This document shows positions 15,818 to 42,486 of a stretch of DNA of 64,000 nucleotides, in pieces. The notes beneath the pieces were generated by a model, which made no database searches, was not told the origin of the DNA, and saw only the letters and a list, made by a program, of their open reading frames with translations. Source of the DNA: Chitinophagales bacterium. Lineage in GTDB: Bacteria; Bacteroidota; Bacteroidia; Chitinophagales; JADIYW01. The translations under genes and the position numbers were made by a program. The stretch spans positions 10,935-74,934 of the forward strand of contig JAXLTW010000015.1 in assembly GCA_046329865.1 (NCBI GenBank), given 5' to 3'. The number at the start of each line of letters is the position of its first letter. Positions within the stretch are counted from its first letter, which is position 1.

Positions 15818-17517
15818 ATGTTTAGTTCATCAGCAAAAAAATATCTTTCCTTTTCTTGTTTTTATAGTAGTAAAATAATTATTACACTTATAGTATTAAT
15901 TATTTCAGTATGCTTTAATTATTGCTCCTTTGCTCAATCAGTTAACGTAATTTCCAAGCAATCCTATCGCTGGTATTTTGGCAATCGGGCCGGATTGAAT
16001 TTTACAACGACCCCACCTTCCGTATTGTATGATGGTGCTTTGTTTTCAAATGAAGTTTGTGCATCAATTTCAGATAAAAATTCCGGAAGATTATTGTTTT
16101 ACACCAACGGTAATAGTGTTTGGGATTCGAGTCACCAGGTTATGCCAAATGGTTCTAATCTAATGGGACGACTGGATAGTGAACAGGGTGTAATTGTTCC
16201 GTTTCCTGGTCATTCGAATCAATACTACATTGTTTCAACCACCTATATCAATGGAATGTACTATTCAATTGTAGATATGAGTTTGAATGCCGGAAAAGGG
16301 GATGTTGTAGTTGATAAAAAGAACATTAAGCTGTTAAATCCAGGCATTGCTAGTGATAAAGTTACATATACCCATCATGCAAACAAGCGGGACTTCTGGA
16401 TAATTGCAAAAGAAAGTTATTCAAATGTCTTTTACGTGTATTTATTGGATATAAATGGTTTACAAATAGTAGATACTATTTCCATTGACTTCTGATTTTT
16501 CATTTCCACAATATGGCGGAGTATTATAAAGTTTAATGAAACAGTAATCTGTTGATTAATTGTCAGGCTCATCATAATGATCCGCTTACTAAAAGCAGAT
16601 TTCAATGTTTTGGGTTTAATACGACTACCGGAAAAATTACACATGTTCAATTTACAGTTGATAGCATTTCTTATCCTTATGGCGCAGAATTCTCTACCGA
16701 TAATAAACGATTGTATATTTCAAGTCCATTTTCAAAAAAAATTACACAGTATGATCTGACGGCTGTCAATGTGAAAAATAGCGCTATTGATATTTTTATT
16801 TCTAATACAATAATACCAGGACAGTTGCAAATGGGACCAGATAATAAAATATACATTCCGTATAATAATGGTAGTTATTATGGCTCATACAGATATTTGG
16901 GAATAATAAATTACCCGAATAGTACAGGGAATTTGTGTGGTTTTGTTAAAGATGCAATAGATCTGTATCCAAATGGCTCTTTTTTAGGTTTGCCCCAATG
17001 TATTTATGAAGCTTTGCCTACCGCTACTGTCGGATGTGCAACCATTGATACATTTAACTGTAAAAGTCTAACATTTGTATTGGACAGTGCTAGGTTTTGT
17101 GTTCCTGTGATATTGTCCGCTGATTCAGCTTCTCTTTCAAATAATGGATACCATTTTTGTATGAGCTATGATACAAATTTTGTTAGACCAACTGGTATTT
17201 ATAATCATCCTACAGGTGATACCAACTATATAGTCAGTATAGATAGTATTGTCAATGGCAAATTATGCATAACCTTAAAATATATTCAGCATGTAATTAT
17301 GACAGCTGATCACAAGATAAATTTAGGATGCTTTGAGTTTGTACTGAATAACGCACCATTCACCTATAATGCATCAACTGAAAAGGAATTCGATTATTTA
17401 AGTTTCAGCATAATAGATGGCTGTAATACAAATATCCAGACCATACGCGCATGGTTAACGGAAGTTAATTCATTTTGGTCAACGGAGGATGGTTATTACT
17501 GGAAACTAGAAGATTAG
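15818..17517 (+). pseudogene. Secreted beta-propeller-like protein with cohesin-like C-terminal domain, interrupted around 16495-16552
   Basis: The N-terminal YRWYFGNRAGLNFTT...LLFYTNGNSVWD motif is typical of N-terminal domains of Bacteroidota gliding/T9SS-associated surface proteins. The reading frame continues in two other frames (FISTIWRSIIKFNETVIC, then INCQAHHNDPL...FGFNTTTGKI). The C-terminal FCMSYDTNFVRPTG is cohesin-like. Confidence 0.5.
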
Positions 17518-17546
17518 AACAAAAATTAAAATATAAAATTAGATAT

Positions 17547-41800: not shown

Positions 41801-42486
41801 AAGATGGAAAGGTTACATTAATTAATGTAGTTGATAATTCTTATTTACCGGGACCACCAAGAAATGGAGTTTTACCACCATTGTATGACAAAAGAACAGG
41901 AAAAGAAATGGATGCTAAAGAAGTTGGAATGGAGCAGTATGTTTATGTTGATAATACAGGCAAAGAGTTATTTAAGCATAGAGATATAACTGGTGAGTAT
42001 AAGGATGGTAAGGCTAAGATGTTATCTGTTGAAAAAGATAATTGGTTTGGTTCTACCTATATTGGACCTAATAACCCAGAATATAATACAGGAAAATTTG
42101 ATAGTAAAGGCAAATTAATAAAATATGATGATTATCGTAGAGAGCCCCAAGATTTAATGGATGCTGCTGCAATGCAACACGACAAAGATTATGATGCAGC
42201 AGATGCACATGGTTTCACAGGAGACGTATTTAAAAGTAAGGCAATTGCTGCAGATATAGCACTTGTACAAAGAGCTAATAAAGTAATAGATATGTTTAAA
42301 AAGAAAGAAACGGATCCTTATACTGGACAACAGGTTTCAGAGGCAACTTTATGGAGAGCACGACAAGTAAAGTTTGGATTTAAATTTCTTATAAATGAAA
42401 AATCGGCTGGTAGACCTATTAGAGCATTTAAAAATTGGCTAAAATATCAAAAACAGAGATGTAGATGGAACTCCAACAAAACCTAG
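35887..42486 (+). CDS. RHS/YD-repeat polymorphic toxin: intact 2199-codon frame; the listed ATG is probably not the ancestral start
   Basis: YD repeats: YYYDQAGNLVQTV, YRYNTRNQVVWQ, WYNAKGQLILSQ, FYDHLGRILCVGE, YSYDEVGNVKTLV, YHYDLISGKVNQVTY, YEYDADNRITNVY, YKYDQLNRIVES, YTYDKNGNILKL, YDYDAIGQLTKD, FLYDATGNRVAKL. RHS core end: YYPFGMQMPG...YRFGFNGQERDDEVSG...DFGERIYNSRTARFYTIDGL...SPYQFAGNTPIAAIDLDGLEQ. Confidence 0.9.
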   Translation: MTKVPQANGYVTTQTQFTRDATGRQVKQSGVGSEFALDRYDSDGNTQKHYTQYFYGAVPDNELIRLFGSNTGKSKHYRKNFVVDPNDQISVSYVDMFGRTVATCLAGQVPPNVTSIGTDSGLFVMPLHNNNVYDKEGRTISLSYTFGNTIKAQNNRDTFEYSLEGWVNELNNSGIQICQTCQYQLSVRLNDPFGAPVTLTQLSAPQPNVQFTNGNKNLEAVFGKDVPCSTPPVVYPKIVFSAPVNKIGTYTVTKELKILTDPIDSIKMDTVHGVVSYERFKDSLLYTILDSTSCDFGCTQYVVKYLNDSLMASDQHRKLDTVTIPGDKVLYHYYYSKWCDMQERLLGDTTRLAFQQCESIYEQIRAAVSPGGKYFTEAFIMQYRNTVPDLYNKSFAEIRAMWKADYADSFALFHPEYCHYEACINDSVSNRLDVKLSRIFTWTEAQVLLGTPQNPAAYDPDFALYQQKFNQYYEVVINRNVLNNPKLNLYDFIDWTHQNYGAYPPYNAAAIIHEYEPQRVMYADVDFTGYTSNPSTPYQYGLPKPVINRLDTLKWFHFRNLMTALRKEAKAIQLEANGCRFLPDDSAIVVYPIANRGNVPSGHDIDSIIGDVCRQTCEGFADRYYPRVLAYCHQGNMINPDDSLELRRLLKKYCTENCGIDNPLGLLKPEDTSDPKTDSIRAFLESRNYLCSWDSIASYNMPVHYQYVVDPATGDTLKVTVCTPDGIEALMIYVRSNLLNFYTDDTSGRALAIQTLQQWGVTPNSILLKDDHVTFVKGQNGDCNNAPCVTTLYFLDSLGKKVHNIEEIIWSQRILTSPLGQSALYQFYANKIMPYFAQYEAVVIHRENGVLKYKRVFLYMLNYNWQGSGCGLDFKGKCTAKAIQTWAFSASVDSFVTSSPDSCYKEITERAENLLKDYYQQYLDSLKLALYNAYLDNCFKLKETFLLKYKLNEYQYTLYYYDQAGNLVQTVPPQGVYQLKSTDFSTSGVWNGAQPDHVLKTQYRYNTRNQVVWQRTPDADSTCFWYNAKGQLILSQNAKQKPKNKFSFTFYDHLGRILCVGEIDSTIAHFRGGMDAVLDSLRFPLQPQFAPKDAIRQLTLTRYDNPVQPGTDGFKQENLRNRVAATYYADQFGADVLLTPTPGGNNTDILFREDIASLLSGNVSLTAYSYDEVGNVKTLVQSMNTFASVMGDTTIVLPPIQAFNTDSTGQWASSNAKIVRSYYNTVPGLSAMKVANTDATATVSQTATLTNSLTYAVVSGKTYTVTVDMGFIAPNPQTGNTIKAKILKGTAIYAQAATATAITNGTYSFSFTPNFTGTVKITYDVLLQKAHSVYLDNVKLYYIEPKAYVVTTPNYKRVDYHYDLISGKVNQVTYQRDKPDQFIHRYEYDADNRITNVYTSRDGILMTREASYFYYPHGPLARIEIGHDKVQGVDYYYTLQGWLKGINNSAITENNDPGQDSVFVVVNTTNGGRDTLNKYIPKDQYNTLMAYYKGDYLGIDNSAAQPYEFNSTAPHNSAMPFYTRSGLSDKFKGLYNGNIAFIANDLPALALSTPGNYSLKWILEEYKYDQLNRIVESQTLLPHATTLNSYLTTLSNKARTSYTYDKNGNILKLNRSSYTAAAPIVATLMDSLTYIYPVNASTGKLRNNRLYHVNDLQTNKAAFTEDIDDQGVLGAQLAGANYDYDAIGQLTKDNAENIDSIRWNVYGKIEKLFFKNGKPAMEFLYDATGNRVAKLLKNAKHPVAAGMDTTYDATYYWRDAQGNVLATESRRFYPIPGTFTGTVPLGGWQGHTVDVEYVLYGSSRLGTYQDTLRYDIATPSAYGQYVRWQARRQYELGNHLGNVMLTLSDVKTYAAGTKGAVGYLAKVLTAQQYYPFGMQMPGKNTTLASYSSLNRYRFGFNGQERDDEVSGNSNALDFGERIYNSRTARFYTIDGLTAKYPWYSPYQFAGNTPIAAIDLDGLEQYIKTYKFEDGKVTLINVVDNSYLPGPPRNGVLPPLYDKRTGKEMDAKEVGMEQYVYVDNTGKELFKHRDITGEYKDGKAKMLSVEKDNWFGSTYIGPNNPEYNTGKFDSKGKLIKYDDYRREPQDLMDAAAMQHDKDYDAADAHGFTGDVFKSKAIAADIALVQRANKVIDMFKKKETDPYTGQQVSEATLWRARQVKFGFKFLINEKSAGRPIRAFKNWLKYQKQRCRWNSNKT
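41779..42483 (+). other. C-terminal toxin tip of the RHS protein: parvovirus-VP1u-like phospholipase A2 motif
   Basis: Downstream of DLDGLEQ: YIGPNNP (42058-) ... EPQDLMDAAAMQHDKDYD (to 42195) ... AIAADIALVQR. This compares with the AAV VP1u PLA2 segment as I recall it, [29 protein letters not shown]...HADAEFQERL: the Y-x-G-P-x-N calcium loop, the HD-x-x-Y catalytic dyad and a distal Asp. Confidence 0.6.

Follow-up and report, generated by a model that had tools for sequence, protein, structure and literature searches.

A conserved Bacteroidota gene module places a TcB-like shell protein beside RHS toxin genes and may serve toxin deployment

Introduction

How do very large RHS (rearrangement hot spot) toxins get out of a Bacteroidota cell? 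The phylum has an abundance of RHS toxins that carry plain Sec signal peptides, and no description is known to us, or was found in the literature searched, of how such 300-kDa beta-shell proteins exit the periplasm. The question is raised by a gene cluster in a stretch of 64,000 nucleotides from a Chitinophagales bacterium (assembly GCA_046329865.1, contig JAXLTW010000015.1, positions 10,935 to 74,934), hereafter the window, in which the listing of open reading frames (ORFs) gives an uninterrupted same-strand run at 15818-42486 (+) that ends in an RHS toxin gene. A sequence-only reading had proposed that these genes form an undescribed system for assembling or delivering the RHS toxin. We found that the cluster is a real conserved gene module across the phylum Bacteroidota, and on balance we favour the view that it is an accessory module for the deployment of the adjacent RHS toxin, Sec-dependent, Bacteroidota-wide and built like the TcB/TcC pair of the toxin complexes (Tc toxins). 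The word undescribed agrees with the literature, in that no description of the module was found in the full-text literature searched, which largely excludes papers in subscription journals.

Results

Conservation and gene order of the module

Six genes of the cluster are conserved elsewhere. With the C-terminal domain of the last of them, they are as follows:

20366-23203, + strand: G3, 945 aa, with an N-terminal beta domain, a helical middle and C-terminal beta segments, as predicted
23205-24038, + strand: G4, a Sec-signal protein of 277 aa, the conserved part of which is a C-terminal domain of ~100 aa
24041-29023, + strand: G5, the 1660-aa hallmark protein, with a signal peptide, an SpvB/TcB-type motif, 12 predicted strands and a predicted shell
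29010-32433, + strand: G6/7, one gene split at 30607-30620, Cys-rich, with a jelly-roll like that of a carbohydrate-binding module (CBM) and a tail of two YD repeats
32440-33120, + strand: G8, a predicted 226-aa periplasmic protein, divergent member of the LolA3 family
33098-42486, + strand: the RHS gene, a giant Sec-exported RHS polymorphic toxin gene of ~3,100 codons, with an intact 2199-aa ORF from 35887
41773-42483, + strand: the C-terminal toxin domain, which follows the RHS core motif (…AAIDLDGLEQ), apparently phospholipase A2 (PLA2)-like

Relatives of G5 were scanned for with one genome per species; 80 genome loci were kept, and 84 loci were fetched and their ORFs called and clustered. 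At least 589 species genomes encode a G5 relative, and at least 3,583 full-length homologues were found among 8,000 candidates scored. By an exhaustive HMMER search the family comprises 3,396 clusters at 50% identity, of which 2,225 reach E<=1e-30. The window protein is 100% identical to the NCBI entry "MAG: hypothetical protein U0T77_08450" (MAG, metagenome-assembled genome), and the homologues are likewise all named hypothetical, save one UniRef entry called "PA14 domain-containing", with precomputed Pfam assignments almost absent. Nearly all of the 80 kept loci are labelled Bacteroidota and belong to Chitinophagales, Cytophagales, Flavobacteriales, Sphingobacteriales and some Bacteroidales, with cultured carriers of the module including Flavobacterium, Niastella, Chryseolinea, Mucilaginibacter and Chitinophaga.

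The gene order is almost invariant across these genomes, and its core (G5, the G7-type tail, the LolA3-like gene and RHS) is kept in all classes of Bacteroidota. A G3-type gene followed by a G4-type gene, and/or a gene for a large variable protein with the G4 domain at its end, stands at the start; an optional Skp/OmpH-like gene (41 loci; Pfam E 1e-12 to 1e-16) and an optional gene, f200, for a product of ~200 aa that is mostly a lipobox-bearing lipoprotein (59 loci) come second and third; G5, of ~1,600 aa, is followed by a G7-type gene or fused with it into a protein of 2,000-2,600 aa; and a ~237-aa LolA3-like gene and an RHS gene of >2,000 aa close the set. A same-strand RHS gene lies downstream of G5 in every locus that extends at least 6 kb downstream (64/64), the ~237-aa G8/LolA3-like gene lies between G5 and the RHS gene in 65 of the 71 loci with at least 1.5 kb downstream, and the G4 domain or f200 is found upstream of G5 in 65 of the 69 loci with at least 4 kb upstream. 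The reverse test, a metagenome scan with one Flavobacterium protein of ~237 aa, gave 8 loci, 7 of them with flanks, and all 7 have G5 upstream and an RHS ORF of >3,300 aa that starts at the end of the LolA3 gene. The co-occurrence with RHS genes, which the sequence-only reading had put forward as a check, is therefore present, and the opposite pattern, in which the upstream genes would be widespread without RHS neighbours, does not hold for G5 or for LolA3. The sole non-Bacteroidota label among the 80 genome loci belongs to a locus of an uncultured Akkermansia sp. with its G3-type gene on the opposite strand, which may be a binning error.

The window copy

In the window, two further genes stand ahead of the six:

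15818-17517, + strand: G1, a Sec-signal protein read in two frames (15818-16495 and 16552-17517), lineage-specific
17547-20339, + strand: G2, a 930-aa Sec-signal protein with an internal motif present three times, lineage-specific

The genes were counted by reference to the closest relative, L005, an uncultured Chitinophagales contig with 84% identity over G5. The two G1 frames correspond to one 752-aa ORF in L005, G6 (29010-30620) and G7 (30607-32433) to one 1138-aa ORF, and G9 (33098-33625), an apparent RHS remnant (33.6-35.9 kb) and the 2199-aa ORF at 35887-42486 to one RHS ORF. Read against these single genes, the window cluster therefore has eight genes, three of them split by frameshifts, and not the ten that had been counted from the window sequence. 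The description of a tight co-directional cluster was accurate, as the ORF listing gives the same junction distances: 29 nt (17517 to 17547) and 26 nt (20339 to 20366) at the first two junctions, then 1 nt and 2 nt, followed by a 14-nt overlap (29010 vs 29023), a gap of 6 nt (32433 to 32440) and a 23-nt overlap (33098 vs 33120). Some of the products named along with it have to be redrawn, however. The 14-nt overlap that had been reported between G6 and G7 is actually a 2-nt deletion relative to L005; the supposed RHS remnant is not separate, being part of the RHS gene read across frame switches; and of what had been listed as two small proteins, one is the LolA3-family member G8 and the other, G9, is the start of the RHS protein with its signal peptide. 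Counts of sigma-70 promoters and terminators were at chance level, with a tool that does not cover Bacteroidota promoters, and are uninformative on operon structure.

The frame breaks are unevenly placed. The deletion between G6 and G7 lies outside a homopolymer, with an ATG exactly at the break. The first 2.8 kb of the RHS gene are frame-broken, the frame changing at least 12 times between 33.5 and 35.9 kb, where several in-frame stops also lie; here tblastn with the L005 orthologue tracks frames 2/1/3/2/1/2/1 over 33074-35881, and in-frame identity to L005 between the breaks is 62-82%. The density of indels is local, with none in the 3.1 kb beyond 35881, and G2 to G5 plus 6.6 kb of the RHS gene are intact. 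Elsewhere in the window, a DUF885 gene (49359-51100, -) is split into two overlapping ORFs, and Exo_endo_phos_3 (5051-5563, -) is present as a C-terminal fragment only, so the breaks are not limited to the RHS cluster. Because these unrelated genes are also split or truncated, indel error in the assembly is most likely the cause of the frame breaks, rather than real decay of the copy.

The shell protein G5

G5 can be divided into an N-terminal motif (~39-125), a stretch of long amphipathic beta-strands (124-353) and a predicted RHS-type shell (~460-1660). The motif, …SGPxQPEVQ…GxFxYNIPLxxxPGPxGGYP.NLxYxSG…WxGLGW…R..RGLPD…, is near-invariant in the family. It overlaps a sub-threshold match to SpvB (PF03534; E 4.6e-4, 19.9 bits against a cutoff of 22) in which residues 61-127 cover profile positions 2-66 of 287. 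A search of PDB sequences with the G5 profile gave nothing at E<=1.

We modelled residues 461-1660 with AlphaFold2 from a 63-sequence alignment, obtaining a mean predicted local distance difference test (pLDDT) of 83.9 and a predicted template modelling score of 0.82, and compared the model to PDB with Foldseek. The top seven matches are all RHS-type shells, and six of them are Tc B or BC proteins. The best is 8qja_A, a type VI secretion system (T6SS) Rhs core (E 3e-9), followed by YenB (4igl_A, E 2e-8, probability 1.0; also 5kis_A), with the rest made up of TcdB1-TccC2 and three entries of TcdB2-TccC3. By this model, G5 shares the fold class of RHS/TcB shells, not their global architecture, and the structure agrees with the earlier guess, made from the sequence, that the 1660-aa protein is SpvB/TcB-like.

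A second AlphaFold2 model, of residues 1-1200 (pLDDT 75), predicts 12 long antiparallel strands at 124-353. Family-wide, the strands (137-353) have one strongly hydrophobic face (mean Kyte-Doolittle ~+1.1 to +3.0 for most, with two weaker strands at +0.3 to +0.6), and the other face carries small or polar residues. In the Foldseek search with this N-terminal model, TcdB2-TccC3 is followed by OpcA, OmpG, designed transmembrane barrels and autotransporter barrels, all at E >=4e-3. The 12-strand region is possibly an outer-membrane anchor.

The genome of Fulvivirga sp. M361 encodes two paralogous G5 proteins, FNH22_11390 and FNH22_12695. At the FNH22_11390 locus the RHS partner carries PT-HINT/Hint domains. 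Modules can be multi-copy in one genome, with differing toxin-release chemistry.

G6/7 and the RHS protein

G7 matches 82 of the 84 loci, and in many genomes the G6/7 region is fused to the C-terminus of G5. The Fulvivirga orthologue contains NIDO, PKD and CBM_4_9 domains. The end of the protein stands out for its conservation across the phylum: the motif …FDDIRIHP…MKSYVYDP..LRLMAELDENNYATFYEYDEEG.L.RVKKETERGI.TI.E.RS forms the last ~70 residues of whichever protein precedes the ~237-aa gene, and this tail, a jelly-roll end plus two YD repeats, is conserved in nearly all of the ~70 loci listed, with G5 fused or split. Two large Cys-rich proteins, one ending in YD repeats, had been described at this position; the Cys-rich region and the YD tail stand, and they belong to one gene.

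The 2199-aa ORF of the RHS gene matches Rhs_assc_core (TIGR03696) at residues 1873-1962 with 36.7 bits against a cutoff of 32.5, and a further 237 aa beyond the core make up a separate C-terminal domain. YD motifs are visible in its translation, and precomputed RHS_repeat matches are "faint" in the Fulvivirga orthologue. DUF6443 (PF20041) was scored in the orthologues from L005 (20.8 bits) and from a second locus, L024 (23.1 bits), against a cutoff of 27.8, the corresponding window region being frame-broken. The earlier description of the last gene as a DUF6443-RHS toxin therefore keeps its RHS core, which is above cutoff, and its DUF6443 part is sub-threshold. The 237-aa C-terminal domain looks PLA2-like: it matches Phospholip_A2_4 of Pfam at E 0.029 only, and contains YIGPNNP…DAAAMQHDKDYD, which we take to resemble the YxGxG and HD..Y motifs of PLA2. 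A 539-aa ORF antisense to the gene (39904-41523, -) lies within its GC-richest, YD-repeat part and is most likely a compositional artefact.

Downstream of the RHS gene the composition changes:

42487-48200, no strand: low-GC tail, GC 0.31-0.32 as against 0.45-0.50 in the RHS gene, with small ORFs only

This tail is where immunity genes or orphan cassettes would be expected. A fragment of an IS200-like Y1 transposase is found in it at 47463-47741.

G8, a LolA3-family protein

The sequence-only reading could name no family for most products, and G8 falls in a named one. Over its full length, the window G8 matches LolA3_fam of NCBIfam (NF053579) at E 9.5e-6 and 25.3 bits, below the cutoff of 83, and a hidden Markov model (HMM) of the G8 family matches it at E 2.7e-21. 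All 25 family members scanned match LolA3_fam; six of the ten members scored are above its cutoff, at 137-222 bits vs 83, the range given by the Flavobacterium-type members. Given the low score of the window protein and the consistent matches of its family, we regard it as a divergent relative. The G8 profile found nothing meaningful among PDB sequences.

LolA3 is known as Fjoh_0605 of F. johnsoniae, a LolA paralogue to which the published work assigns no role, and LolA-family proteins normally carry lipoproteins (PMC11885536). The P. gingivalis LolA3 has been crystallised and binds LolB very weakly, from which its authors conclude that it has a separate function (PMC13103446). RHS is mentioned in neither paper. 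In likeness to these proteins, G8 and its positional homologues match LolA3_fam, the Flavobacterium-type members above cutoff; the differences are that the LolA3 literature has no RHS link and no LolB pairing, and that the window G8 scores at only 25 bits.

Upstream genes

The G3 family is found in 31 loci, always upstream of G4/G5, and its consensus ends in a C-terminal Phe. A single-sequence search and a 25-sequence profile search retrieved 7-8 homologous proteins only, and a Pfam scan and a PDB profile search gave no match apart from coiled-coil noise. Periodicity analysis of G3 gives a charged helical middle at approximately residues 220-500 and ~20 amphipathic beta segments in the C-terminal 440 aa; on the basis of this amphipathic periodicity, the C-terminal region may be an outer-membrane barrel.

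The G4-domain HMM matches 59 loci. In several groups of proteins (c13, c19, c54 and c61) the G4 domain makes up only the last ~100 residues of otherwise variable large proteins, among them a c19 member (L024, 7017-8810) that bears a CBM96 domain. Some G4 family members have weak DUF928 or Ig-like matches, and 1 of 23 has a weak match to Por_Secre_tail (E 0.016). G4 itself received no family assignment from Pfam or NCBIfam and nothing meaningful from a PDB profile search.

G1 and G2 are restricted to the window and L005. G1 has no homologue in the other 82 loci and no Pfam, NCBIfam or PHROG match; the same three databases give none for G2, a Gly/Asn-rich protein in which a motif of ~20 aa (…QVLAKDAsG..VWRD.S…) occurs three times at intervals. 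Because they are present only in L005 among the related loci, G1 and G2 lie outside the conserved module. Their earlier inclusion as a propeller/cohesin protein and a tail-fibre-like protein is accordingly dropped, PHROGs giving no tail-fibre match.

Ahead of G1, the window holds several type IX secretion system (T9SS) cargo genes at 16-15571, encoding Por_Secre_tail proteins (one of them Endonuclease I) and a 1734-aa protein in which seven PKD-like (K319L-like) domains are combined with CHU_C. A terminator-like hairpin at 15604-15620 separates these genes from G1.

Export signals and neighbouring secretion genes

All module families have Sec-type N-termini. In the window, Sec signal peptides had been reported for most products, and hydrophobic Sec-like N-termini are indeed present on all of them except G7, which is an internal fragment. 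Besides the matches of the RHS protein, scans of all cluster products with Pfam, NCBIfam and PHROGs gave only the weak SpvB and weak LolA3 matches. The earlier statements that no T9SS C-terminal domain and no component of a T6SS, TcA or extracellular contractile injection system is encoded agree with these scans: Por_Secre_tail and CHU_C are absent from G1 to G8 (Pfam, NCBIfam), Pfam finds no T6SS, TcA or contractile injection family in the cluster products scanned, and none of Hcp, VgrG, PAAR, TssB and TssC is present in the window.

A secretion machine does adjoin the module in some relatives, a link that, like the Skp/OmpH gene of other lineages, was missing from the sequence-only reading. 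Within 10 kb upstream, 12 of 82 related loci have a complete gene set of the type II secretion system (T2SS)/type IV pilus kind, in both orientations, with T2SSF/GspF, T2SSE/GspE, an STN-domain secretin, a prepilin (A24) peptidase, pseudopilins, PilN and MORN-repeat proteins (for example L076, 183-8240, and L024, 451-6751). These loci come from Fluviicola, Owenweeksia, other Flavobacteriales and a Cytophagales MAG. An assignment of the recurrent upstream gene sets to T6SSiii was considered and rejected, the Pfam families being GspE, GspF, secretin, A24 peptidase, pseudopilin and PilN.

Discussion

We base the favoured reading of the module as an accessory set for RHS toxin deployment on its synteny, its family assignments and the TcB-like fold, and from these we infer pairing, chaperoning, anchoring and the export route. 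The module would be built like a split Tc-toxin B/C pair, with G5 as a TcB/YenB-like shell, G6/7 as its C-terminal extension, and an RHS protein of ~3,100 aa that would contribute its own YD shell, RHS core and variable C-terminal toxin, here PLA2-like. All parts would cross the inner membrane via Sec, after which LolA3, together with the Skp/OmpH-like chaperone and the lipoprotein in other lineages, would keep these huge beta-rich proteins competent in the periplasm. G5 may insert into the outer membrane, or dock there, by means of its amphipathic domain of 12 beta-strands, and the conserved YD tail may mediate its pairing with the RHS protein, the beta-sheet continuing from one to the other as in TcB-TcC. 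The toxin-loaded shell would then be exported or displayed, antagonising neighbouring cells, and the G4-domain proteins, with their variable N-termini and constant C-terminal ~100 aa, could be exchangeable accessory or recognition subunits. The outer-membrane step is probably performed, in some lineages, by the adjoining type II secretion machine. A stronger form of this proposal, in which the module is a new Bacteroidota-specific pathway that carries RHS "cocoon" toxins through the outer membrane or onto it, with a barrel-anchored TcB-like platform, a LolA3 chaperone, G4 recognition subunits and, in some lineages, a dedicated type II secretion machine for the outer-membrane step, is tentative, and we hold it to be doubtful rather than probable.

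Several observations weigh against deployment by such a module. The functional steps are drawn from sequence and models. As assembled, the window copy cannot encode a full-length RHS protein. The resemblance of G5 to Tc B proteins has its limits, with low Foldseek TM-scores (0.18-0.21) and, by Pfam at E<=0.01, neither an FG-GAP/VCBS propeller nor a TcdB mid-domain. TcA is absent by Pfam from the cluster products and the other window ORFs, and nothing comparable recurs in the 84 loci. The 12-strand region could equally belong to a soluble shell; its pLDDT is 57-90 on the strands and falls to ~30-45 within two linkers. A full-size shell is already present in the RHS protein itself, which has no evident need of a second shell protein; RHS_repeat (PF05593) gives no Pfam match at E<=0.01 in the window RHS ORF, and a conserved motif that could serve as a docking site was sought at the RHS N-terminus past the signal peptide and none was found. 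No immunity gene was recognised in 42487-48200, where there are only small unassigned ORFs. Type II secretion genes are absent from the window and from 70 of the 82 loci within the 10 kb seen. Finally, deletion of lolA3 in F. johnsoniae altered neither gliding nor T9SS-dependent amylase secretion (PMC11885536).

The simplest alternative, that the genes are unrelated neighbours which happen to be co-directional, could appeal to the fact that no single Pfam family links them, but the 64/64 co-occurrence and the fixed order, across Bacteroidota classes at 30-37% identity, leave it with a negligible probability and effectively refute it. A different question is whether the copy in this genome is alive. 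If the frameshifts and stops in the 5' 2.8 kb of the RHS gene, in G1 and in G6/7 are genuine, the locus is a decaying, non-functional copy and nothing is deployed here, whatever the family does in other genomes. The number of frame switches and stops in 33.5-35.9 kb, their local concentration and the non-homopolymeric deletion in G6/7 are what one would cite for decay; the in-frame identity to L005 between the breaks argues against decay of long standing, the reading frames stay whole in G2 to G5 and over 6.6 kb of the RHS gene, and breaks in the unrelated DUF885 and Exo_endo_phos_3 genes are as expected of an indel-prone long-read MAG assembly. We consider decay unlikely, while taking it seriously as an alternative.

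The remaining alternatives accept the module and dispute what it does. G5 (with G6/7) and the RHS protein could form a free, soluble Tc-like BC cocoon with no outer-membrane anchoring, which would leave the cell by type II secretion, in vesicles or on lysis and act on eukaryotic grazers or hosts whose receptors the CBM-like domains would bind. That six of the top seven Foldseek matches are insecticidal Tc B/BC proteins would suit such a toxin, as would the type II secretion clusters at 12 of 82 loci, the CBM-type domains in G7 homologues and G4-domain proteins, and a PLA2-like toxin that would act on any membrane. However, no locus has a TcA-like translocator, a BC-size cocoon is larger than the secretin pore, and the Skp/OmpH gene, the lipoprotein and the 12-strand domain, with its hydrophobic face, speak for outer-membrane biogenesis; a free toxin is thus an unlikely account. 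Further still from our view, the system might not be a toxin system at all, and might serve surface adhesion or cell-cell recognition through teneurin-like display of a YD shell, or be an outer-membrane biogenesis device that uses LolA3. The variable, adhesin-like upstream genes (LRR, i.e. leucine-rich repeat, CBM96 and PKD) would fit adhesion, and the usual lipoprotein cargo of LolA-family proteins would fit biogenesis (PMC11885536). Against both stand the architecture of the RHS partner, where a distinct C-terminal domain comes after the RHS core as it does in polymorphic toxins, the low-GC region after the RHS gene, which resembles cassette regions, and the two G5 paralogues of Fulvivirga sp. 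M361, and we regard a non-toxin role as quite improbable.

The module supplies a phylum-wide candidate set of partners for the exit of RHS toxins from Bacteroidota cells, and in the stronger form of the proposal it would amount to a new system of contact-dependent antagonism. It centres on a hallmark family of >3,000 clusters at 50% identity that has no functional name, the window G5 being without a Pfam or NCBIfam assignment. LolA3, as found in F. johnsoniae and P. gingivalis, gains a testable role, and if the stronger form is true, an orphan paralogue would gain a function. The predicted fold of G5 would extend the BC "cocoon" principle to a setting without an A component. Cultured, tractable carriers (Flavobacterium, Chitinophaga, Mucilaginibacter and Niastella) make genetics directly feasible.

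Comparison with known systems

The nearest likeness is to the Tc BC proteins (TcB-TcC and YenB-YenC; 4igl, 5kis, 6h6e), with which the module shares the modelled RHS-type beta-shell fold (Foldseek E 2e-8 to 3e-5, probability up to 1.0), a neighbouring gene for an RHS-core protein with a variable C-terminal toxin and, at sub-threshold level, the SpvB-type N-terminal motif of G5. In contrast to Tc toxins, the module has neither TcA nor an FG-GAP/beta-propeller, its SpvB match covers 66 of 287 positions and is below cutoff, and every component is Sec-signalled. Its "C" partner, at ~3,100 aa, has a DUF6443-like region and a complete shell of its own, and its companions (LolA3, Skp/OmpH, the lipoprotein and the G4-domain proteins) and its confinement to Bacteroidota are further differences.

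T6SS Rhs effectors such as RhsA of P. protegens (8qja) provide the best Foldseek match of G5 and likewise combine an RHS core with a C-terminal toxin. They differ in being cytoplasmic before firing, whereas the module proteins carry signal peptides and are not accompanied by PAAR, VgrG, Hcp or sheath genes. Inverse autotransporters (type Ve) and two-partner secretion systems resemble the module in another way, through the order of G5 (signal peptide, short segment, 12 predicted strands, huge C-terminal region) and through the presence of a Skp-like chaperone gene within the module, but they show no sequence or profile similarity to it and the barrel matches are weak (E 4e-3 or worse).

Zhang et al. 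2012 described a "TcdB/TcaC-type" trafficking of polymorphic toxins, with Bacteroidetes among the phyla concerned (PMC3482391). There too a signal peptide and an SpvB domain are tied to RHS toxins, but SpvB, propeller, RHS repeats and toxin are described there as belonging to one polypeptide, whereas in the module the SpvB-type shell protein is separate, toxin-less and part of a larger conserved gene set.

With no TcA and no propeller found and SpvB sub-threshold, the module does not qualify as a Tc complex, and its products do not qualify as T6SS or T9SS cargo either. It resembles most closely the Tc-toxin BC pair and the RHS polymorphic toxins, and what is new is the distinct Sec-dependent set of envelope accessory proteins that accompanies them.

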